Origin: Patescibacteria group bacterium
GTDB taxonomy: Bacteria; Patescibacteriota; Dojkabacteria; J137
Reading direction: 5' to 3'
Assembly (NCBI GenBank): GCA_016861265.1
Contig: BOLA01000001.1
Span: 852,136-916,135 of the forward strand
DNA: 64,000 nt
Below are positions 5,322 through 57,916 of this stretch, in pieces (position 1 is the stretch's first letter; each line of letters opens with the position of its first letter). The translations under genes were made by a program, and so were the position numbers. The notes beneath the pieces are model-generated. The model ran no database searches and was not told where the DNA came from. It worked only from the letters and a program-made list of their open reading frames with translations.

Positions 5322-5663
5322 ATGGCACAGCAAGTACGCCACTATCGCTCGTCCACCCATCAGTTGGACTTTTCTCGCCTTGACCCGCGTAAGCGGACTT
5401 GGTTGGATAAGGCTCTTGATTGGGCTGGTATCGTATGGACAGTGGTAAGGCTTGCCGCTACTGCTGTCCTCTCAATTGTCTTCTTCGGGTATGTAGGCAC
5501 TGTAGGAATGAACTTCTTCGGTGTCAGCACCTATGCTCAGATGCCTCACAGCATCTATACCACGTGGTTGCTCATGTCCGGGGTTGGCACTTTCCTGATC
5601 GGTGTAGTATTTTTCTGGGGTGAGATTTTCCCTCAGAAGTCGAAAACTCGCCGCTCACGGTAG
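5322..5663 (+). CDS. small 2-TM membrane protein encoded by GC-rich island A
   Basis: A 113-aa ORF. Its GC content (about 52%) and codon usage differ strongly from the flanking genes (about 33-38%). It has its own consensus promoter and SD and a downstream terminator. Two hydrophobic helices are present. Confidence 0.5.
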   Translation: MAQQVRHYRSSTHQLDFSRLDPRKRTWLDKALDWAGIVWTVVRLAATAVLSIVFFGYVGTVGMNFFGVSTYAQMPHSIYTTWLLMSGVGTFLIGVVFFWGEIFPQKSKTRRSR

Positions 5664-32761: not shown

Positions 32762-33070
32762 ATGGCTGTTACACAGCAACAATCAGATACGGTGAGGGTC
32801 AGTGGAATCTCTTGGCTTGAGCGGACATGGTACATGTTGCTTGCACTCATCCGCTCCACTGCCGTTCTGATTTTCGCCATCGGGATTCTTTTAATCGGAG
32901 TTGCGCTTATCTCGGAAAGCAATGTCCGGGTAATCGCCCAAACTGATGAGGAAGGCTGCATCACCTCGGTGTATGCGACCAACCACCCGATGAACGACCA
33001 ATGGGTCGTCCGTATCTGGGGTGATAAACCCGCAGACGATGGCAAGCCCGATCCGCACTTCTGCCACTAG
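32762..33070 (+). CDS. small TM-anchored protein encoded by GC-rich island B
   Basis: A 102-aa, GC-rich ORF with a central TM (LIFAIGILLIGVALI). Its own terminator hairpin lies at about 33076..33100. Confidence 0.45.
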   Translation: MAVTQQQSDTVRVSGISWLERTWYMLLALIRSTAVLIFAIGILLIGVALISESNVRVIAQTDEEGCITSVYATNHPMNDQWVVRIWGDKPADDGKPDPHFCH

Positions 33071-33100: not shown

Positions 33101-33176
33101 CAAACTTTTCCAATTTCAATTCTGTATATACTGTTTATATATGTTATAATATATTCAGCACTAAGGAGGTGCACGA

Positions 33177-33482
33177 ATGTTAAAAAAGCTCTTAGTAGTT
33201 ACCCTATTGGCTGTGTTGCTCGGAGTGTTTCCAGTAGCAGCGCAGGAAGACGATTCGCAGGTCAGCGAGTTTACCGTCTACTTGCCTCCATTCTCCGTAG
33301 AATTCTTCTACGCGGACTGGCTGGCTGACGACACTACTTGCCAGTTCTGGGGAACGTCGTTCGGTCTCATGCGTGAGATTGGCGAGCAAATGCCGAAAGC
33401 CTACCGCTTAAATGTGGTGTACGGCGGATGTGGCGTGTTGCGAACGTCAATCTTCACCTACGATGCCAATAGCGAGAAATAA
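33177..33482 (+). CDS. small secreted protein (signal peptide) encoded by GC-rich island B
   Basis: A 101-aa ORF with signal peptide MLKKLLVVTLLAVLLGVFPVAAQ. Upstream are TATAAT at about 33145 and SD AAGGAGG. It is GC-rich. Confidence 0.5.
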   Translation: MLKKLLVVTLLAVLLGVFPVAAQEDDSQVSEFTVYLPPFSVEFFYADWLADDTTCQFWGTSFGLMREIGEQMPKAYRLNVVYGGCGVLRTSIFTYDANSEK

Positions 33483-47969: not shown

Positions 47970-49160
47970 TTATAGACTTAAACTTCCTTCGTCGCCCAAT
48001 CTCCAATAGGAAATTCCGTTTATTCCGTAATCTGCCGCTAACTTCTTTCTAACTTCAATAGAATCTTTATTAGAATATACTATCCATCTTTTTTGTCCAT
48101 TAAAATCATAAGACCCAAGCATTTCGCCCCAATTCTCAATAAATTTTTGATCTACAGAATAGTTAGAAAATAGTTTATCTACTCCATTATGATAATATGC
48201 AACAGCTGCCTCGGAACCAAAATCATTATCAGGAAGTCCTTCTGTAGTGTAATAAAGTAGATCATATTGAATTGGTCTATCAGACCAATCTTGTGCATAA
48301 GTATTAATTCCTAATACTATTTTCTCTCTTGGAACTCCCTCTTTTATTGCGTACCTAATAATATCTTCTAGCCAGTCTAAAGGCCCAATTGGACCAATAG
48401 TATTGCTATTAGTTGGAGTGTAGGAATATCCTTGTATTATAAATACATCAACTATCTCTCCTAGCTTTTTGTAATCTAGGGTTGCCCTAGTCTGAGCGTA
48501 CGATATATTATTGCCCCACTTAGCTAACGCACTAAAATATAGTTTTTTATTGATTGTATTAAGTCTCTCTTTTAGCTGGGCAAGCATATCAAGAAAGGGT
48601 TTTTGATCGTTTACATAAAAGCTTTCAAAGTCTAAATCAATTCCCTGATAATTATTTTGTTGAATATATTCAATTGTCTCGTTAATAAATCTGTTTACGT
48701 ATTCTTGGGAATTTAGTACCCGATTTAGTTTATCTCTTTCGAATGCTGTAATTGTGGGAACAAGATCAATATTATTATTTGAAGTATACTCTATAAATGT
48801 ACTCCAATTTGTATACCCGTTAGTAGCTAGGCTTCCATTATCATTTAAATCAAACCAAAAAGGGCTTACGCTGGTTATCAATGAGTTATTCTGTAGTGTT
48901 GTTAAACCATCCTGCATATCCCAATCAGGTATCCATCCGTAAAACTTTAGTTCGCCTATGTCTTTTTGTTGCTTTGGAATAGATTGTATAGCATCAATTT
49001 CAAGGTCGAAATCGGTCTTGTTAGATGTGTAAATCTTTATTTCATTTGTCTCTTCTATCGTTTTAATGTTTGGATTATTATATTTTTGATATGCAAAAAA
49101 GGAAGCAACTCCAATTACTAAAAATAATACAATTACAATTATTAATCGCATATTAATCAC
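47970..49160 (-). CDS. glycoside hydrolase family 18-like protein (chitinase / YaaH-type peptidoglycan hydrolase-like), membrane-anchored
   Basis: The GH18 catalytic motif variant QGIDLDFESF (DxxDxDxE) is present, with an N-terminal TM. Confidence 0.5.
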   Translation of the reverse strand: MINMRLIIVIVLFLVIGVASFFAYQKYNNPNIKTIEETNEIKIYTSNKTDFDLEIDAIQSIPKQQKDIGELKFYGWIPDWDMQDGLTTLQNNSLITSVSPFWFDLNDNGSLATNGYTNWSTFIEYTSNNNIDLVPTITAFERDKLNRVLNSQEYVNRFINETIEYIQQNNYQGIDLDFESFYVNDQKPFLDMLAQLKERLNTINKKLYFSALAKWGNNISYAQTRATLDYKKLGEIVDVFIIQGYSYTPTNSNTIGPIGPLDWLEDIIRYAIKEGVPREKIVLGINTYAQDWSDRPIQYDLLYYTTEGLPDNDFGSEAAVAYYHNGVDKLFSNYSVDQKFIENWGEMLGSYDFNGQKRWIVYSNKDSIEVRKKLAADYGINGISYWRLGDEGSLSL

Positions 49161-50301
49161 CTAAAGTTAAAGGTTTCTCAACATCTTCACTTGTTAGTTC
49201 AATAACTTCACCAGTAATTTTATAAATATCTTTATCGATTTTCTTATATTCTGTTCTAGCATCATTATAGGCAACTACTGATGTACCTAGATTCTTGCCC
49301 AACTTGGCCATATTGGATTCAAAACTTGCTAAGTGTTTTTGTAATTTTTCCACATTACTTTTTATTTCTAAAGCCTGCTCCTCTATTTTTAGAGCATTAA
49401 GTCCTTGTAAAACTGTTTGTAGGTAAGCGAGGAATGACGTAGGAGATGTTATTATTACATTTTTCTGTTTAAATGCGTATTCAATTAAATCGGTAGTACT
49501 GGTTTTTACTGCGCCGATTTGGTTTATTAGTAAATCATAATAAATTCCTTCTGAAGGTATAAACATAAAAGCAAAACCCATGGTTTTTTCGTCGGGTCGA
49601 ATATACTTAGATGTTTCATCAATTCTATTTTTTAAATCGATTTTAAATAATTTCTCTAGTCTTTCTCTTTCAGTGTCGTCTTTACATTCAATTATCTTAT
49701 TATAATTTTCCAGTGAGAATTTAGAATCAATTGGAATTATCTTATCCTTAACAAAAACGACCGAGTCTACTATTTCCCCATTCGTAAATTTGTATTGCAT
49801 TTGGAACGATCCCGGAGGAAGAACATTTTTAAGTAATGTTTCAAGGAAATATTCTCCCAAGATACCTCTTTGCTTAGGGTTCTTTAAAATATTCTCTAGA
49901 CCCTGCAGTTGTTCCGCAACTCCAACTACTTGTTTATTAGTTTCGTCTAACTTAGTAAGCTTCTCGGTGACCTCTTTAATTATCTTGCTGGCAGTATCGC
50001 TAGTATCTTTCATGCTTCTTTGGGTTAGCTGAAACTGTTGTAACAAACCAGTATTAGAACTTTTAAACTGTTCATTTATTGTTAAGTTTTGCTCCCTTAA
50101 CCTGTCGTTCAATTCTTTTAAAGTTCTATCAAGTTTTTCATCTTGCTTAGAAGTTAGAGCATTGATTTGGTTTTGTAAGAATAGGATAGATTTATCCAGA
50201 CCTGAGTCTTGGCTTGGCTTATTTACTTTGGAAATTAAGTACACGACTGCACCTATTAAGACAATCAATAGAACAATGGCTACAATTATTAAGGCGTCCA
50301 T
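49153..50301 (-). CDS. rmuC: DNA recombination protein RmuC-like (N-terminal TM, long coiled coil, C-terminal RmuC domain)
   Basis: It has this architecture together with the conserved FMFIPSEGIYYDL region. Confidence 0.5.
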   Translation of the reverse strand: MDALIIVAIVLLIVLIGAVVYLISKVNKPSQDSGLDKSILFLQNQINALTSKQDEKLDRTLKELNDRLREQNLTINEQFKSSNTGLLQQFQLTQRSMKDTSDTASKIIKEVTEKLTKLDETNKQVVGVAEQLQGLENILKNPKQRGILGEYFLETLLKNVLPPGSFQMQYKFTNGEIVDSVVFVKDKIIPIDSKFSLENYNKIIECKDDTERERLEKLFKIDLKNRIDETSKYIRPDEKTMGFAFMFIPSEGIYYDLLINQIGAVKTSTTDLIEYAFKQKNVIITSPTSFLAYLQTVLQGLNALKIEEQALEIKSNVEKLQKHLASFESNMAKLGKNLGTSVVAYNDARTEYKKIDKDIYKITGEVIELTSEDVEKPLTLGD

Positions 50302-50412: not shown

Positions 50413-50634
50413 CTAAGCAGCTTGGGATGCAACTAGCTTAATATGATCGTCCATCTGTTGCTTTACATCAGATGAAGCGCACTCATAAGAGCTTGTGTAG
50501 CAATTCTGAGCTTCAAAAAGCTCCATTCCGGCTTCTTCACTGGAACTCCCAGTTCCATGACGCGCCAGTCTTTTTGAACGCTCCTGTGCTTCCACCAGTC
50601 GCTCCCAACATTGCTTCAGTTCTTCAAAGTTCAT
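50413..50634 (-). CDS. small cytoplasmic protein encoded by GC-rich island C
   Basis: A 73-aa, GC-rich ORF with an SD-like GAGGA upstream on the minus strand. It is flanked by hairpins. Confidence 0.4.
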   Translation of the reverse strand: MNFEELKQCWERLVEAQERSKRLARHGTGSSSEEAGMELFEAQNCYTSSYECASSDVKQQMDDHIKLVASQAA

Positions 50635-50709
50635 TGAAAAGTCCTCATGTCTTTACCGTGCCAGGAAGTATATCATTTGTTATTAATTTTAGACAACATT
50701 TGAAGTGTT

Positions 50710-50733
50710 GTGGGCGAGCATTACGCTCGCCCA
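50710..50733 (-). terminator. terminator hairpin immediately after the stop of 50738..51010
   Basis: GTGGGCGAGC-atta-GCTCGCCCAC. Confidence 0.5.
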
Positions 50734-50737
50734 CGGA

Positions 50738-51010
50738 TCACTCCGAAGGCACGTTATTTTTCATGTCTTCGAAGGCAGCTACAATATGCGGCTCGCATTC
50801 TGCGAGCCGCCTTTCCAGTTTCCCATTCTCAGAATCTTTGATTGCCAGAGCCTTTTTGTATTCAAACTCTGGTACCAAATTGATTTTGGTAACTGGATTC
50901 TCATAGCTGTTAATGATTTCCTCAGCAGCAAGTACAAGGCTGTATATGCCGCATAAGCCGACTAACAGCCACATCTCAGCAGCTGTTAACGAGTGCTTTG
51001 CAGATTCCAT
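50738..51010 (-). CDS. small TM-anchored protein encoded by GC-rich island C
   Basis: A 90-aa ORF with a TM (MWLLVGLCGIYSLVLAA). On the minus strand upstream are the promoter TTGCAA-16-TATAAT (about 51043..51070) and SD AGGAG. Confidence 0.45.
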   Translation of the reverse strand: MESAKHSLTAAEMWLLVGLCGIYSLVLAAEEIINSYENPVTKINLVPEFEYKKALAIKDSENGKLERRLAECEPHIVAAFEDMKNNVPSE

Positions 51011-51042: not shown

Positions 51043-51070
51043 TTATATGTTGATTAGATAATCTTTGCAA
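51043..51070 (-). promoter_or_regulatory. sigma70-like promoter for the island C gene 50738..51010
   Basis: The reverse complement reads TTGCAA-agattatctaatcaaca-TATAAT ... AGGAGtaaacaATG. Confidence 0.45.
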
Positions 51071-51124
51071 AACTTTAGTAGTTTTATCGGCTGTGATAAA
51101 CTTTATGCATTTAATACTCAATTT

Positions 51125-52132
51125 ATGGAACAACTATCAGTAATTTTAGGATTCACTATACTTTCAATGATTGTAACTGCTCTGTACGCTCCCCTATTAA
51201 TTAAGCTTTTATACAAAATGCAAATTGTAGTAAGGCATTCACTTATGGGAAATAAAATGAATGAGGAGTTTATCAAAATACAAGGTCATAAAACTGGAAC
51301 TCCTACTCTTGGCGGACTAATGATTTCAATTTCTGTTTTAGTATTAGGGCTAGTATTTTTGCCAGAGAATAATCTAAAGTTACTATTTCTTATTTTTTGG
51401 GGGTTATTTACACTCTATGGTTTAATTGAAGGTCTTATAGTTTACGCTAGAAAGCTAAGTGATAAGTTCAAACTCTTAGAATCAAGCTTTGAATGGAGAA
51501 TGGGAAAATTATTTGTACTTTACTTAATATGTTTAATGGCTGTAGCCGCAACATGTAAGTTTTTAGCGATTGATCAAATAGAATTATTTGGAATAACTAT
51601 TATTATTAACACACTGTCTGTTTTTATAGGCTCATTTTTCTTTGTGTTGGCAATGTATGCTATGGAAATCACAGATGGTGCAGATGGTCTTGTAACTGGG
51701 CAATTCTTAATTGCAATTATTTCCTATGTAGTTATAAGTATGCTTACTGGTAAAACAGAATTAGTTCCAATCCTTGGGTTAATTCTTGGTTCCAGTATTG
51801 TGTATTTATACTTTAATATAAATCCTGCTAGAGTATTTATGGGGGGGACAGGGACTTTTCCTATTGCCTTTGCAATACTTATATCTTCTGTAATTACTAA
51901 TACAGTAGATATTCTTCTAATAATCGGAATTATATTCTGGATTGAATTAGGATCAAGTGCACTACAAATATTATGGATAAAATTATTCAAAAAACGATTG
52001 TTTAAAATAGCCCCATTTCACCATTACTTTGAGTCCGTTGGATGGCCTGAAACTAAGATGGTACAAAGATTCTGGTTGTTTTCAGCTATATTTGCATTGG
52101 TGGGATTATGGATATTTAGTCTTATTAAATAG
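51125..52132 (+). CDS. mraY: phospho-N-acetylmuramoyl-pentapeptide transferase (MraY; glycosyltransferase family 4)
   Basis: KTGTPTLGG (MraY KxGTPTMGG), ITDGADGLVTG, and the C-terminal PFHHYFESVGWPE (MraY PxHHHFEL.GW.E). The start is chosen at ATG 51125 (MEQLS) rather than the TTG at 51065, which is the -35 of the minus-strand promoter. Confidence 0.75.
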   Translation: MEQLSVILGFTILSMIVTALYAPLLIKLLYKMQIVVRHSLMGNKMNEEFIKIQGHKTGTPTLGGLMISISVLVLGLVFLPENNLKLLFLIFWGLFTLYGLIEGLIVYARKLSDKFKLLESSFEWRMGKLFVLYLICLMAVAATCKFLAIDQIELFGITIIINTLSVFIGSFFFVLAMYAMEITDGADGLVTGQFLIAIISYVVISMLTGKTELVPILGLILGSSIVYLYFNINPARVFMGGTGTFPIAFAILISSVITNTVDILLIIGIIFWIELGSSALQILWIKLFKKRLFKIAPFHHYFESVGWPETKMVQRFWLFSAIFALVGLWIFSLIK

Positions 52133-52644: not shown

Positions 52645-52689
52645 TCTAATTAATAATCATGTATTTTTACATTATATCATTCGTTTCTG

Positions 52690-53330
52690 GGGTGTATAAA
52701 ATTGCAAAAGGCGGTCCCTCATAAAGAGAAACCGCCTTCCGCTGCTAACCTTTCGGATCGCAGCTTTCACAGCCTTTCGGCTGTGTGTAGAACCTAGAGT
52801 AAACTCTGGTATCCTAAGCGGGAACCCAACACTTCTGCTGGGAACTGGAATACCTTACCCTAGGTCAGTGAGTGATACCGATACCGAATTTTGTAGCGAG
52901 CAAGCTGCTACAAACCTTCGTCCGCTAATATCGGTATCGTGCCGAATGTGGGGGACACACTCGGCAGTCAATTTTGGTGCCGCATTTCACCGCTTCCTTG
53001 CGAGTGAATGCTGCAAATTGAAAACGTGATTTTCACTTTGCAATATTCAGTTGAGATTTTCGCTCGGTATACAAAGATACCGAGCGGTCCGTTAAGCGTA
53101 TTTCTACGCATTATTCTAGACTTTTCCATCCCCATGTTTTGGTTCAAAGTCCTGACAGGGGCCTTGCCTTGGCTTTCTTTCGAAAGACGGCCTAAATAAA
53201 CTGAATTTACTTAAGTTGTCCTTTGAAATTATGTTGTTAAATGTCTGGGAAGCATTCTATGAATGCTTCCCGCTAGTTCGTGAAAGTCCGGTTCCTCAAT
53301 GAGGACCAGTCAGCACTAACGGGTGGATTT
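52690..53330. ncRNA. GC-rich, highly structured non-coding region (candidate large ncRNA, class undetermined)
   Basis: About 640 nt at about 52% GC with no credible ORF and many perfect stems. These include CACAGCC-tttc-GGCTGTG, TTTGTAGC-gagcaa-GCTGCTACAAA, GATACCGATA...TATCGGTATC (long-range), CGCTCGGTAT-acaaag-ATACCGAGCG, GGGAAGCATTC-tat-GAATGCTTCCC and TCTTTCGAAAGA. It contains GAAAGUCCGG, an RNase P CR-I-like decamer, but in the wrong position for RNase P. Confidence 0.45.
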
Positions 53331-53441
53331 AAATTTTCATTAAATACTTATATCCAACCCACTAGTACATTTAATTTAACGAGCTATAATCATTATATAC
53401 CAAAGCACGCTTAAAGTAAATACTCCTGGGACGCGTTGATT

Positions 53442-53600
53442 TAGTTATAACTCTGCCGCAACCTTATTCGGTAGATATTCCAACAGTAAATTATGTCTAT
53501 CGACTTTATATCGATATCTAACCTTCCCAGTAGGTCTTTGTCTTCTACTGTAGAAACTTACTATACCAAAGGCCACGATTACTGAGACGATTTCGCCCAT
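53442..53600 (-). CDS. possible small Arg-rich TM protein (52 aa). Low confidence.
   Basis: AAGGAG lies 8 nt upstream of the ATG. The ORF reads MGEIVSVIVAFGIVSFYSRRQRPTGKVRYRYKVDRHNLLLEYLPNKVAAEL. It is adjacent to the structured RNA region. Confidence 0.25.
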
Positions 53601-53800: not shown

Positions 53801-55732
53801 ATGAATAAGAAAATTAGAAATTTTTGTATTATTGCTCATATCGACCATGGAAAATCAACCTTAGCTGACAGATTGATTGAAACTACAGGAGCAGTATCTT
53901 CTCGAGAAATGAAGGACAGAATGTTAGATACACTTGAATTGGAACAAGAAAGAGGTATTACCATAAAGCTTCAGACTGCCCGATTAAAGTATGAATATAA
54001 AGGCGAAAACGCCGAAAAGGGTGATTATATTCTTAACCTTATTGATACACCGGGTCATGTAGATTTTAGTTACGAGGTATCTCGTTCAGTTGCTGCCAGT
54101 GAAGGTTGCTTGTTATTGGTTGACGCGACCCAAGGTGTTCAGGCTCAAACACTAACTACTGTTTATAAGGCAATGGAATATGATTTAAAAATAATTCCTG
54201 TAATTAATAAGGTAGATATGGACATTGCCGAAGTTGAAAGAACCAAGCAAGAGATGATTGAAACCTTTGGATTTTCCGAGGACGAAATTATTATGGCATC
54301 TGGTAAGTCAGGAATCGGTGTTCACGAAATATTAGATGCAATTGTAGAAAGAATTCCTCCTTATAAAAAAGAGGAAACAAAAATATTAGCTGACGAAGAT
54401 GAGTTGTTAATTCTAGAAGGCAAAGAGACTAAAATTACAAAGGCGTTAATCTTTGACGCGTTCTTCCATGAATATAAGGGTGTAACTGCTTTAGTTAAGG
54501 TAATAAGTGGAGAAATCAAAAAAGGAGATAAGGTTTACTTTATAAGTACTCAAACCGATGTAACACCAATAGAAATTGGTTATCTACTGCCCAAAATGAC
54601 AGAGTCCGACTCTATAAAAGAAGGCGAAGTAGGTTATGTAGCAACGGGTTTAAAGGATATTCACAGAATTCATTCAGGCGATACAATCACTCTATTCCAC
54701 TCAAATCATAGTCATGAATCTGTTGAACCGCTTAAGGGTTACCGACAGCCAAAACCAATGGTGTACGCAAGCTTATATCCTGTAGAAGCTAGTGATTACG
54801 AAAGTTTTAAAGAAGCTTTAGAAAAATTATCACTAAACGATGCTGCTTTAACTTACCAAAAAGAATATTCTCAGGCATTAGGAACAGGTTTTGTTTGCGG
54901 ATTTTTAGGACTTTTACATTTAGAAATTACTCAAGACAGATTAGAGCGAGAACACAATATTGATTTAATTAGTACTACTCCGACTGTAGAATTTAAAGTG
55001 CTGTTAAAAACGAGGGATTACTCCAAGATTCCAAATATAAATGTGTCTAATATTGAAACCGAAACAAATATTGCAACTATACGTACAGCTGCAGAATTCC
55101 CTGAAGGAAGTATGTACGAAGAAGTTTACGAGCCTTGGGTAAAACTAGATATTATTACTCCTGAAGAATACATTGGTCCAATAATGGAACTTTGTCAAAA
55201 CAGAAGAGGTGTATATAAGCACATGAACTTCTTGAACAAGTCAGGGAATAAGAATCATGCAATTATAGAATATGAAATGCCTACTGTAGAGATTATTGTT
55301 AACTTTTTTGACAGATTAAAGTCAATTAGTCACGGATACGCCTCTATGGACTATTCGTTAATTGAATACAGGAGAGGTGATATTGTTAAGGTCTCTATTT
55401 TGGTTAATGAAGAACCTGCCGAATCTTTAAGCTTTTTAACTCACAGAAGCAATGCCGTAAGAAGGGGTCGTGAAATGGCTGATAAATTAAAGGAGTTAAT
55501 CCCAAGACAGAACTTTAAGGTTCCAATTCAGGCTGCAATTGGTGCGCAGATTATTGCAAGGGTAACAATAGACGCCTATAGAAAAGACGTCCTCGCAAAG
55601 TTATATGGAGGTGATGTTACTAGAAAATTAAAACTTCTTGAAAAGCAAAAGAAGGGAAAAAAGAAAATGAAGGCAATTGGTAATGTTGAAATTCCTAAAG
55701 AAGCTTTCTTAGCTGCATTAAAGATTGATTAA
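53801..55732 (+). CDS. lepA: elongation factor 4 (LepA)
   Basis: N-terminal NFCIIAHIDHGKSTLADRL, then DTPGHVDF and NKVD, and the LepA-specific C-terminal domain. Confidence 0.9.
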   Translation: MNKKIRNFCIIAHIDHGKSTLADRLIETTGAVSSREMKDRMLDTLELEQERGITIKLQTARLKYEYKGENAEKGDYILNLIDTPGHVDFSYEVSRSVAASEGCLLLVDATQGVQAQTLTTVYKAMEYDLKIIPVINKVDMDIAEVERTKQEMIETFGFSEDEIIMASGKSGIGVHEILDAIVERIPPYKKEETKILADEDELLILEGKETKITKALIFDAFFHEYKGVTALVKVISGEIKKGDKVYFISTQTDVTPIEIGYLLPKMTESDSIKEGEVGYVATGLKDIHRIHSGDTITLFHSNHSHESVEPLKGYRQPKPMVYASLYPVEASDYESFKEALEKLSLNDAALTYQKEYSQALGTGFVCGFLGLLHLEITQDRLEREHNIDLISTTPTVEFKVLLKTRDYSKIPNINVSNIETETNIATIRTAAEFPEGSMYEEVYEPWVKLDIITPEEYIGPIMELCQNRRGVYKHMNFLNKSGNKNHAIIEYEMPTVEIIVNFFDRLKSISHGYASMDYSLIEYRRGDIVKVSILVNEEPAESLSFLTHRSNAVRRGREMADKLKELIPRQNFKVPIQAAIGAQIIARVTIDAYRKDVLAKLYGGDVTRKLKLLEKQKKGKKKMKAIGNVEIPKEAFLAALKID

Positions 55733-55735
55733 CTT

Positions 55736-55766
55736 CAGAGGGTTGGGGATAAATCCCCTTCCCTCT
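55736..55766 (+). terminator. terminator hairpin after lepA
   Basis: AGAGGGTTGGGG-ataaat-CCCCTTCCCTCT. Confidence 0.45.
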
Positions 55767-55795
55767 TAAAACACCACGTGGATGTTATTAAAGCC

Positions 55796-55817
55796 GATCT
55801 CGCGCTAGCGCGAGATC
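55796..55817 (-). terminator. perfect palindromic hairpin overlapping the stop of 55805..56146
   Basis: GATCTCGCGC-TAGC-GCGCGAGATC, with the stop codon in the loop. Confidence 0.45.
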
Positions 55818-56146
55818 AGCAGGTCGATTCCGTAGCATCCGTAATCCGGATTTTGCGGTTCGGCGTGCGCGAGACTGTGGAATTGCTGCGGCATATTATC
55901 GAGCGGCAAGCAAACCTCATCACCACTTTGAAGGTTAAAGGTTTCGCTTCCTAGAATCACGTCATAGTCCGTGTTGTTGTTGGTACGGAAAATGGCGGTT
56001 TCGCCGGGTTCCACTTCAACAACATAACTGTGACCGATTCCATTCTGGTATTGAATCTTCACGGCCACTTGGGCAGTGGGTGTTCCGAAAACCAGAGCCA
56101 TGAGAATCGACAGTAGCCAGCGAATCAATTCGTACATACGACACAC
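55805..56146 (-). CDS. small secreted protein (signal peptide) encoded by GC-rich island E
   Basis: A 113-aa ORF with signal peptide LIRWLLSILMALVFGTPTAQV. On the minus strand upstream are TTGTAT-16-TATAAT and SD AAGGAG. It is GC-rich. Confidence 0.45.
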   Translation of the reverse strand: MCRMYELIRWLLSILMALVFGTPTAQVAVKIQYQNGIGHSYVVEVEPGETAIFRTNNNTDYDVILGSETFNLQSGDEVCLPLDNMPQQFHSLAHAEPQNPDYGCYGIDLLISR

Positions 56147-56293
56147 TCCTTGCTTTTTAAGTTGCTTTTAATTATAGCACTTATTGCTATATATACAATA
56201 TATACTGGGGTTGGATTGAAGGGAAAGTTTATTATAAAAAGCAATTGGCAGGTTGGGAGTTTTATTTCCCTTCCTGCCAATGTAGTGCGCTAC

Positions 56294-56683
56294 TTACTGT
56301 GCGTCTGCAACAGTGAAGCAGCGTTTGTCGCCGTCAACCTCTCCGCGAGTGTTGAACGGCGCCGGAATCACGAAGCTGCTGACGCAAACCCGATCATCCG
56401 CTGCAATCTGCACCTGCTGGGTATTTACCGTCAGCAAGGCGCCCCCATTGTTACTTTTTACGAAGGTAAACACCGTGTGCGGGGGGCGCACCGGGTACCG
56501 GTCATTCATGCCACTTGCGTGGCTGACCGCGATCTCTGCGTTTGGAACGACAGTGGGTTGCCCCGCCTGTCGAGCCTCGGTGATGATCTGACGAGCCGTA
56601 TTGCGGTACTTTACCGCTAACGCTGCCAGTATCACCAAAATAATCACCAACGCAAGCCGCTTCACTCTCTTGGATTTCTTCAT
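56294..56683 (-). CDS. small membrane-anchored protein encoded by GC-rich island E
   Basis: A 129-aa ORF with an N-terminal KR-rich region plus TM (LALVIILVILAALAV). SD GGAGG and TATAAT lie upstream on the minus strand, and a hairpin lies downstream. The overlapping + ORF 56150..56620 is judged spurious. Confidence 0.45.
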   Translation of the reverse strand: MKKSKRVKRLALVIILVILAALAVKYRNTARQIITEARQAGQPTVVPNAEIAVSHASGMNDRYPVRPPHTVFTFVKSNNGGALLTVNTQQVQIAADDRVCVSSFVIPAPFNTRGEVDGDKRCFTVADAQ

Positions 56684-56806
56684 CTGACACCTCCGTCAAT
56701 AATCAAGAGACATATATATTATATCATATTTAGATATATTAGGTATATATTCAGTACTTTAGTGCTTATTTTGCCACTTATTCAATAATCGTATATAATC
56801 CAATCT

Positions 56807-57916
56807 ATGGGAATTTTAGAAAAAATTGACTTAATCCAAAGCAGAATAGATGCAATTGTATCCAAGAAAGATCTTAATAAGCTTATCGCCGAAAGAGATC
56901 AAATGGAGGCTAGCACTATGGCTAATGGCTTTTGGAATAATAACGAAGAAGCTCAAAAGACTATGCAATCATTAGGCGGGTTAAAGTCAGAAATTGCTGA
57001 TGTAGAAAATTTGGTTAAAACTATAAAAGACATTAAAGATTTGGCTTCTGACGATTCAATCTCTTCCATTAAAGATCAATCCGAAGAAGAAGATAATGAA
57101 CTGATTCAAATGATTAACTCAGGTCTAGAAGATTTAGAAAAGAAAGTAGAAGAAGTTGAACTAACAACATTCTTAAGTGGTAAATTTGATACAAGTAATG
57201 CGATTCTTAAAATTATTGCGGGACAAGGAGGAACCGAGGCATGTGACTGGGCGAGTATGGTTTTAAGAATGTATACAAGGTATGCTAACGATAAAGGTTG
57301 GACAGTAACAATTTTAGATAAAGTGGATGGTACGGAAGCAGGTATTGCTAGTGCTGAATTGTTAATTGAAGGTAGATATGCTTATGGCTATTTAAAACAC
57401 GAACATGGAACTCATAGATTAGTTAGAAACTCCCCTTTTAACGCACAGGGCTTAAGGCAGACTTCCTTTGTTGGGGTAGAAGTACTTCCGGAAGTAAATG
57501 AAGATATTGACATAGAGGTGAGGGACGAGGATATTGAATTCAATGCAATAAGATCCAGCGGAGCCGGAGGGCAAAATGTAAATAAAGTTGCCTCTAAAGT
57601 AAGGATTGTTCATAAGCCAAGCGGTATTGTTATTGAGGCATCGGCCCAAAGAACTCAGCACGCTAACCGAGAAGCTGCAATGCGTTTGCTTAAGGCAAGG
57701 CTATACGAAATTGAAGAAAATAAGCAAAAAGCAGAACTGGCTTCTAATAAAGGGGAATATAAAATTGCCGGTTGGGGCAATCAAATTCGAAATTATGTTC
57801 TTCAGCCCTATAAATTAGTTAAGGATGTTAGAACTGAAATTGAAACTCCAAATGCAGACGGTGTTTTGGATGGTGATTTGCAAATGTTTATTGATGCAGA
57901 AATTCGTATGCTTTAA
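56807..57916 (+). CDS. prfB: peptide chain release factor 2
   Basis: It has the SPF tripeptide (VRNSPFNAQG) and GGQ (SSGAGGQNVNK). It is a single uninterrupted frame with no programmed +1 frameshift site. Confidence 0.85.
   Translation: MGILEKIDLIQSRIDAIVSKKDLNKLIAERDQMEASTMANGFWNNNEEAQKTMQSLGGLKSEIADVENLVKTIKDIKDLASDDSISSIKDQSEEEDNELIQMINSGLEDLEKKVEEVELTTFLSGKFDTSNAILKIIAGQGGTEACDWASMVLRMYTRYANDKGWTVTILDKVDGTEAGIASAELLIEGRYAYGYLKHEHGTHRLVRNSPFNAQGLRQTSFVGVEVLPEVNEDIDIEVRDEDIEFNAIRSSGAGGQNVNKVASKVRIVHKPSGIVIEASAQRTQHANREAAMRLLKARLYEIEENKQKAELASNKGEYKIAGWGNQIRNYVLQPYKLVKDVRTEIETPNADGVLDGDLQMFIDAEIRML

Follow-up and report, generated by a model that had tools for sequence, protein, structure and literature searches.

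Paralogous GC-rich mini-genes of a clade-restricted orphan family in a strain-variable slot between lepA and prfB of a Dojkabacteria-like bacterium

The 64,000-nucleotide stretch of DNA analysed here, referred to below as the window, belongs to an ultra-small, AT-rich Patescibacteria group bacterium of the Dojkabacteria lineage (contig BOLA01000001.1 of assembly GCA_016861265.1, forward-strand positions 852,136 to 916,135; all coordinates below are those of the window). Between lepA (53801-55732, plus strand) and prfB (56807-57916, plus strand) the window contains a GC island, termed island E, with two open reading frames (ORFs) on the minus strand, designated gene A and gene S (Table 1). The GC content of the island is 0.48-0.53, with a peak of 0.62, against a mean of 0.345 for the whole window, and the coding sequences of the two genes stand at 0.50-0.56, compared with 0.33-0.37 in their neighbours. 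The difference is most pronounced at third codon positions (GC3), where gene A reaches 0.66 and gene S 0.59, whereas lepA, prfB, gltX and other neighbouring genes lie between 0.24 and 0.29. Median GC3 is 0.26 among the 53 non-overlapping ORFs of the window that encode at least 80 amino acids (aa), and values exceeding 0.40 are encountered in island ORFs only. The 100 nucleotides (nt) upstream of gene A and of gene S have a GC content of just 28-30%; the GC-richness is therefore limited to the coding sequences. A preliminary description of this DNA, made from its letters alone, had placed two minus-strand mini-genes in a GC-rich island at this position, and both the ORFs and the composition bear this out.

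Table 1. Coordinates of the genes and signals of island E. SD, Shine-Dalgarno site; K/R, lysine or arginine; coordinates of genes A and S include the stop codon.
Feature	Position	Strand	Description
gene A	56294..56683	-	129 aa: K/R-rich N-terminus, predicted 20-residue signal anchor, linker, predicted all-β domain with Cys100 and Cys122
gene S	55805..56137	-	110 aa: short N-terminal hydrophobic leader (probable signal peptide), paralogous predicted all-β domain with Cys76 and Cys101
plus-strand 156-aa ORF	56150..56620	+	no gene; antisense shadow of GC-rich gene A
gene A promoter	56718..56750	-	ATATAT-N5-ATATAT dyad, then extended -10 TGATATAAT
gene S promoter	56171..56203	-	ATATAT-TG-TATATAT dyad, then extended -10 TGCTATAAT
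gene A SD	56690..56694	-	GGAGG, 6 nt before ATG; invariant in six-locus alignment
gene S SD	56146..56151	-	AAGGAG, 8 nt before ATG 56137; invariant
gene A intrinsic terminator	56233..56281	-	TTGGCAGG...CCTGCCAA hairpin, then UUGCUUUUUAU
gene S end hairpin	55793..55820	-	12-bp stem as folded, TAG stop in CUAG loop
GC-rich hairpin 3' of lepA stop	55737..55766	.	common to the lepA and gene S transcripts, which converge; resembles a bidirectional terminator; L088 and L094 conserve it

In order to judge the coding status of these ORFs, we used five related metagenome contigs (L001-L005) in which the same two genes likewise lie between prfB and lepA. Genes A and S are intact in every one of these contigs that covers them. 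The ratio of nonsynonymous to synonymous substitution rates (dN/dS) is 0.10-0.33 in the annotated minus-strand frames only (0.12-0.33 for gene A); calculated for the frame in which the plus-strand 156-aa ORF is read, it rises to about 1.7-2.3. Substitutions cluster at the third codon positions of the minus-strand frame and, in the alignment of relatives, all insertions and deletions in gene A measure 3 or 6 nt, thereby preserving the frame. With dN/dS values of 0.1-0.3, the genes are evidently maintained; genes A and S are real protein genes under purifying selection.

An island of high GC content in an AT-rich genome often turns out to be a structured RNA, and a long plus-strand ORF is indeed present here. 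Nevertheless, that island E specifies structured non-coding RNAs, or that the plus-strand ORF is its true product and the minus-strand ORFs are incidental, is extremely improbable. Both the position of the substitutions and the frame-keeping indels point to the minus-strand frame, the plus-strand ORF is interrupted by five stop codons in L001 and L002 and by a frameshift in L004, and the SD sites and ATG codons of the minus-strand genes are invariant. Moreover, Rfam 15 yields no match within 55700-56810 at gathering score or even at E<=1. The preliminary description had regarded the plus-strand ORF as most likely an artefact of high GC content, an opinion that it would have given up had this ORF turned out to be the conserved product; the conserved units are the minus-strand genes.

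The same description had given gene S a length of 113 aa. An ORF of this length exists (55805-56146), but its listed GTG start directly touches the AAGGAG SD site. Public gene calls begin instead at the ATG at 56137, located 8 nt past AAGGAG, and this codon does not vary in relatives; accordingly, gene S encodes 110 aa.

Each gene possesses an extended -10 element and an SD site of its own, as well as a stable GC-rich hairpin at its end, in agreement with the preliminary description. The hairpin of gene A (56244-56281), taken together with its U-run (UUGCUUUUU), folds at -25.6 kcal/mol (z-score -5.2); its outer stem is invariant, while the inner stem is remodelled yet still pairing in L001. 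The hairpin of gene S (55793-55820; -22.2 kcal/mol, z-score -5.2) is built on a perfect 22-nt palindrome, GATCTCGCG-CTAG-CGCGAGATC, extending to 13/14 pairs per arm. The TAG stop codon does sit in the 4-nt loop, as had been noticed, but the letters quoted for this palindrome were wrong and comprised two bases too many. Diverged alleles retain the gene S hairpin through G-U pairs and bulges, and in such alleles it is more stable in the sense than in the antisense transcript (-19.5 versus -11.9 and -18.8 versus -14.3 kcal/mol); it is therefore in the mRNA transcribed from the minus-strand gene that the hairpin acts. A generic scan for sigma-70 promoters and terminators recognised neither the promoters nor the terminators of the island E genes, because these promoters lack a canonical -35 element and not every hairpin is followed by a long T-run.

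The proteins encoded by the two genes are related to each other. BLASTP aligns them with an E-value of 3e-4 over 85 residues, with both cysteines matched, and comparison of the A and S subfamily profiles with hhalign gives a probability of 94.3% (E 9.8e-8, 80 columns). Only G58, C100 and C122 are invariant in an alignment of 14 sequences. Sequence comparison thus shows the two proteins to be distant paralogues of one orphan domain, predicted to be all-β and about 80 residues long. In AlphaFold2 models built from 11-sequence alignments, the gene S protein is all-β (predicted local distance difference test score, pLDDT, 82; predicted template modelling score, pTM, 0.66), and so is the gene A protein (pLDDT 78), which in addition has a long N-terminal helix. 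The models place the invariant cysteines on strand 6 and on the last strand, where they probably form one disulfide.

The two types differ at their N-termini. In all seven A-type members (7/7), 3-7 lysine or arginine residues precede a hydrophobic segment of 19-25 residues, so that the earlier view of the 129-aa protein as N-anchored is well supported; the segment is predicted to be an N-in signal anchor, which would leave the domain outside the cell. S-type proteins begin with a hydrophobic stretch of 14-17 residues, following an n-region with 0-1 K/R and 0-2 aspartate or glutamate residues, and have a glycine at the putative -1 position. Secretion of the 110-aa protein, also proposed earlier, is plausible in view of this leader but less certain in view of an n-region without positive charge. 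We infer export from the homology to the A domain and from the invariant cysteine pair, and the product is probably released or loosely attached. As an aside, three A-type proteins (P0017, P0018 and P0020, encoded at L097 7430-7849, L091 5292-5720 and L099 6001-6402) possess an extra cysteine in a cytoplasmic GC[RK][RK] motif in front of the anchor, a motif absent from gene A of the window.

No similarity to characterised proteins was detected. Searches against Pfam, NCBIfam, PHROGs and PADLOC produced no match above threshold, only sub-threshold noise (ShyC, XrtO). A sequence profile search of PDB returned nothing significant (best E 0.048), and Foldseek found no match in PDB better than E 0.3 and template modelling score 0.3. 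Neither the family nor GC-rich mini-genes in Dojkabacteria could be found described in a literature search.

The family is also narrowly distributed. The LepA proteins of 'Ca. Dojkabacteria PAT1' and of a Patescibacteria metagenome-assembled genome each share 76% identity with that of the window; in these two nearest other species (L006 and L007) the island is absent and the neighbours of lepA are different. Word-indexed searches of a collection of 5.8 billion clusters retrieved 11 clusters in total, including gene A of the window and the cluster that holds its gene S. A HMMER profile search of 1.84 billion representatives recovered nine true relatives, plus two repeat proteins (P0015, with immunoglobulin (Ig)-like repeats, and P0016, with Calx-beta-like repeats) that we judged spurious, their profile matches being sums of weak repeat matches and not homology. 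There was no match to the family profile in 185,579 GTDB species genomes, no homologue was found by tblastn in 50,697 phage records, and BFVD gave no match. All nine relatives (9/9) reside in the prfB-lepA slot, on contigs whose LepA is 90-99% identical to that of the window. The family is thus confined to the prfB-lepA slot of one Dojkabacteria-like clade within the candidate phyla radiation (CPR, Patescibacteria).

This distribution bears on a possible phage origin, in which the genes would be phage-derived morons or prophage remnants, for example superinfection-exclusion or receptor-masking proteins. The promoter-ORF-terminator build and the deviant composition do fit the definition of a moron (PMC4378225), and lysogenic-conversion genes typically encode small proteins that are membrane-bound or secreted. 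There are, however, no phage genes in or beside the slot, the flanking genes are prfB and lepA at every locus, and PHROGs, BFVD and the tblastn search of phages are all devoid of matches, which makes such an origin distinctly unlikely.

Within the clade, the content of the slot varies from locus to locus. Gene A is followed by gene S in the window, L086 and L088, while the order is S then A in L091 and L092. S occurs alone in L094-L096 and A alone in L099-L101, whereas L097 carries A, S and A. The slot measures 0.4-1.3 kb and holds one to three mini-genes; no empty prfB-lepA junction was seen among the related loci. L003 harbours, in addition, a 1,070-bp AT-rich insertion (31% GC; L003 2811-3880), which is positioned precisely at the stop codon of lepA and has TTAATC at either end. 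The insertion encodes a 351-aa ORF with coiled-coil and transmembrane regions and without Pfam match, which is unrelated to the island family, and provides further evidence that the slot accepts insertions.

The sequences themselves are also highly variable. LepA is 90-99.5% and PrfB 80-100% identical across the related loci, whereas A and S fall to 29-40%. Relative to L001, dN is 0.002-0.015 for lepA, prfB, gltX and a response regulator gene, 0.044 for S and 0.30 for A. The corresponding dS values are about 0.5 in the flanks and 0.135 in S. Gene A is split: its C-terminal 60 codons stand at 0.31, and in its N-terminal 69 codons dS is saturated and nucleotide identity drops to 42-65%, versus 90-95% elsewhere. 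Relative to L004, dS is 0.45 for lepA and 0.06 for prfB. Such mosaic dS values indicate that homologous recombination has been frequent and that its breakpoints fall in and around the slot. The slot is therefore both variable and mosaic. These three properties, namely the paralogy of the two genes, the strain-variable slot and the restriction of the family to a single clade, go beyond what had been described for this DNA.

A small secreted protein adjoining a small membrane protein, both diversifying fast into strain-specific alleles, might suggest a secreted toxin (bacteriocin) with its membrane immunity protein, or another obligate two-component module. We consider this highly unlikely. Unlike the members of such pairs, both proteins are paralogues of one domain; each type is found alone, gene order swaps and three copies are possible. 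In addition, the genes form separate transcription units, and no match was obtained with PADLOC, Pfam or PHROGs.

The transcription signals are shared across the family. Nearly every family gene, in all lineages, comes with an extended -10 element and a GC-rich hairpin of its own, and with a leader that contains GGAGG and measures about 26-36 nt; an AT-rich dyad, ATATA-N3-9-TATAT, lies upstream of the -10 element in family genes. In the 64-kb window we count three matches to the pattern ATATAN{3,9}TATATN{2,20}TAWAAT, where 0.32 would be expected, and only one of 100 shuffles reached three. Two of these matches are the promoters of genes A and S. Related loci totalling 84 kb contain 19 occurrences; all 19 directly precede family genes, covering 19 of about 25 such genes, and every related locus has the motif in front of family genes. 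In these loci the motif is therefore specific to the family genes. The dyad may represent a regulatory site. The third occurrence in the window (33126-33150, plus strand; GTATATACTGTTTATATATGTTATAAT, then AAGGAGGT) precedes a gene at 33177-33482 (plus strand), which is GC-rich (GC3 0.63) and whose 101-aa product has two cysteines and a signal peptide of the classical kind and is non-homologous to the island E family. This copy suggests a promoter type or regulon shared by GC-rich small exported proteins.

How, then, did these genes become so GC-rich? A straightforward possibility is that they represent recent foreign DNA from a GC-richer donor (the organism on which the bacterium lives, a plasmid or a phage), without any special role and decaying towards the host composition. 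A GC3 of 0.6 in a genome at 0.26, with island ORFs as the only outliers, would fit such an import, as would the absence of the island from the nearest other species and the existence of one A-type subgroup with host-like GC content, as if ameliorated. Several observations speak against it. No homologue was found beyond the clade in the 1.84 billion representatives, the GTDB genomes or the 50,697 phage records. The high GC content is a property of the coding sequences only, the promoters, leaders and spacers being AT-rich and carrying a clade-specific motif. High GC content persists in alleles whose identity has dropped to 30-40%, in backbones with less than 10% difference in LepA. Furthermore, substitutions from G or C (strong, S) to A or T (weak, W) and the reverse are balanced (S>W:W>S 13:14 in gene S and 11:14 in the C-terminal part of gene A), with no excess of GC to AT changes, although this test, with its small sample, rough polarisation and noisy backbone controls, is suggestive but underpowered. 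Finally, dN/dS values of 0.1-0.3 are those of maintained genes. Given the lack of a donor, the restriction of high GC to coding sequences, the GC-richness of diverged alleles and the balanced flux, a simple recent import is not well supported and appears unlikely. What upholds the GC-richness may instead be selection acting on the mRNA, or GC-biased gene conversion in a hot spot of recombination.

Taken together, the data are best accommodated by strain-variable extracytoplasmic proteins that are encoded in a recombination-prone slot, are built in a moron-like manner and would play a role in interactions with the host or with phages, a reading to which we assign a probability of about 0.6. In this reading, two autonomous single-gene transcription units encode paralogues of one clade-restricted orphan family, each unit being a cassette composed of an AT-rich dyad, an extended -10 element, a leader that measures about 30 nt and includes a strong SD site, a GC-rich coding sequence and a GC-rich hairpin. 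The gene A product would hold its domain on the outer face of the membrane through the N-in signal anchor, and that of gene S, with a short hydrophobic leader only, would probably be released or loosely attached. Alleles of the slot would be exchanged between strains by recombination, leaving the housekeeping flanks almost unchanged, and their products could serve as variable surface or secreted factors for contact with the host cell of the symbiont or with its phages.

Several points weigh against this reading. The function is deduced from a pattern alone. Overall dN/dS is below 1, so that there is no direct sign of positive selection, and relaxed constraint combined with the replacement of alleles could account for the fast divergence. 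A normal Sec signal peptide has a positively charged n-region, which is missing from the S-type leader, and export of S is accordingly not certain. The spacing of dyad and -10 element varies, at about 4 to 11 nt, more than would be expected of a fixed promoter element. Finally, a 116-aa A-type subgroup (L087, L097) has a host-like GC content of 0.37-0.38 and is without the dyad, indicating that neither the GC-richness nor the dyad is obligatory.

A more far-reaching proposal, which we put forward only tentatively, is that these genes are lineage-specific surface-variation cassettes of a CPR symbiont. One orphan domain would be carried in GC-rich modules under a dedicated dyad-operator promoter, which would also be used by at least one unrelated GC-rich small secreted gene; the modules would be shuffled by recombination at fixed housekeeping slots, and their GC content would be actively maintained, by mRNA selection or GC-biased gene conversion, rather than inherited from a donor. 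The resulting regulon might then define strain-specific recognition of hosts or phages.

Other parts of the window contain elements of comparable appearance. Two further GC-rich genes for small membrane proteins are located at 5322-5663 and 32762-33070 (both plus strand; 113 and 102 aa, GC3 0.59 and 0.62), the former being preceded by a canonical TTGACA-17-TATAAT promoter and giving a sub-threshold Pfam match to IncD. The products of island E had been said to echo those of two other islands, B and C, and a comparison of the island proteins had been proposed. The resemblance holds for their general character, and the promoter motif is common to the gene at 33177-33482, but no sequence relation was found: the proteins encoded at 5322-5663, 32762-33070 and 33177-33482 show no detectable relation to the island E family. 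A second variable slot (50413-51010, minus strand) lies between rmuC (49153-50301) and an mraY-like gene (51065-52132). It contains two small minus-strand genes of 73 and 90 aa with a GC content of 0.45-0.46; its counterparts are two genes of 86 and 97 aa in L097, about 32% identical, and a single 92-aa gene in L099. The region 52645-53445 is partly GC-rich (0.46-0.51 over approximately 52676-53100) without containing a convincing ORF, and a search of Rfam at E<=1 gives chance microRNA matches only. This region is 99.9% identical in L005 and has no blastn match in L097 or L099. As for the immediate neighbour of gene A, prfB is one uninterrupted 369-aa ORF without a programmed +1 frameshift site, and its near-consensus sigma-70 promoter (TTGCCA-17-TATAAT, 56771-56799) is divergent from that of gene A.

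Patescibacteria live attached to other microbes. To our knowledge, few of the molecules behind host specificity and phage susceptibility in CPR bacteria have been identified, most candidates being unannotated small proteins. The locus described here offers a concrete set of such candidates: a family confined to one clade, with a domain that would lie outside the cell, encoded in a fixed chromosomal slot and exchanged between strains. The proteins of the slot diverge more than 10 times faster than the neighbouring genes, and the recognisable promoter motif that they share could define a regulon. Coding sequences with a GC3 of about 0.6 in a genome at 0.26, without detectable donor, also bear on the practice of reading deviant composition as horizontal transfer.

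Certain features of the island recall known protein classes and mobile systems. Small signal-anchored or secreted β-sandwich surface domains, such as Ig-like and Calx-beta-like adhesin modules, are all-β, of about 80 residues and extracytoplasmic, as is predicted for the island domain, and they gave weak profile matches from the same region. These matches are, however, sums over 7-12 repeats, the cysteine spacing of 21-25 residues misfits an Ig domain and there is no good Foldseek match, so that membership is unsupported. Type IV pili are reported to be used by Patescibacteria for host contact (PMC11623550). Type IV pilins and pseudopilins share with the island proteins an N-terminal hydrophobic helix, a small β domain and a C-terminal disulfide pair (the latter features predicted here), and are surface proteins of episymbionts, a location that the island proteins would have in common with them. 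Nevertheless, the class III signal G↓(F/M)xxxE is absent from 14 out of 14 aligned N-termini and no pilus genes are found nearby. The proteins do not qualify as lipoproteins either: there is no lipobox ([LVI][ASTVI][GAS]C), and among seven S-type leaders a single one, that of L088, has a cysteine (LLLC), with glycine standing at that place in the rest. Integron cassettes were rejected because each gene has its own promoter, the hairpin sequences differ between cassettes and the loci contain no integrase. A target of a diversity-generating retroelement was rejected as well, since the 64-kb window holds no second copy of the island sequence that could be the template repeat and, in the N-terminal part of gene A that varies, the differences comprise indels and all substitution types.

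The closest resemblance is to two kinds of variable elements. Phage morons are single ORFs with their own promoter and factor-independent terminator, of deviant composition and inserted between conserved genes (PMC4378225). In the same manner, each unit of the island is one ORF with its own promoter and hairpin terminator, its composition is sharply unlike that of the neighbouring genes, presence and number vary among close relatives, and the products are predicted to be small membrane or secreted proteins. Unlike morons, the island units are found in a cellular chromosome between housekeeping genes and not in a phage or prophage; all units of the slot belong to one paralogous family with a dedicated promoter motif, and no phage relatives were found. 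Flexible or hypervariable replacement islands of free-living bacteria are strain-specific loci located between core genes, such as those for surface polysaccharides or surface proteins. The slot shares with them conserved flanks, strain-specific content swapped by homologous recombination, mosaic dS values and, presumably, surface-exposed products. It differs in being very small (0.4-1.3 kb, with one to three mini-genes), in that its contents are homologous, though extremely diverged, instead of being unrelated gene sets, and in having a GC content far above that of the backbone, the reverse of what is usual for such islands. What the prfB-lepA slot adds to these known arrangements is a well-defined orphan family and a compositional puzzle, rather than a new kind of system.

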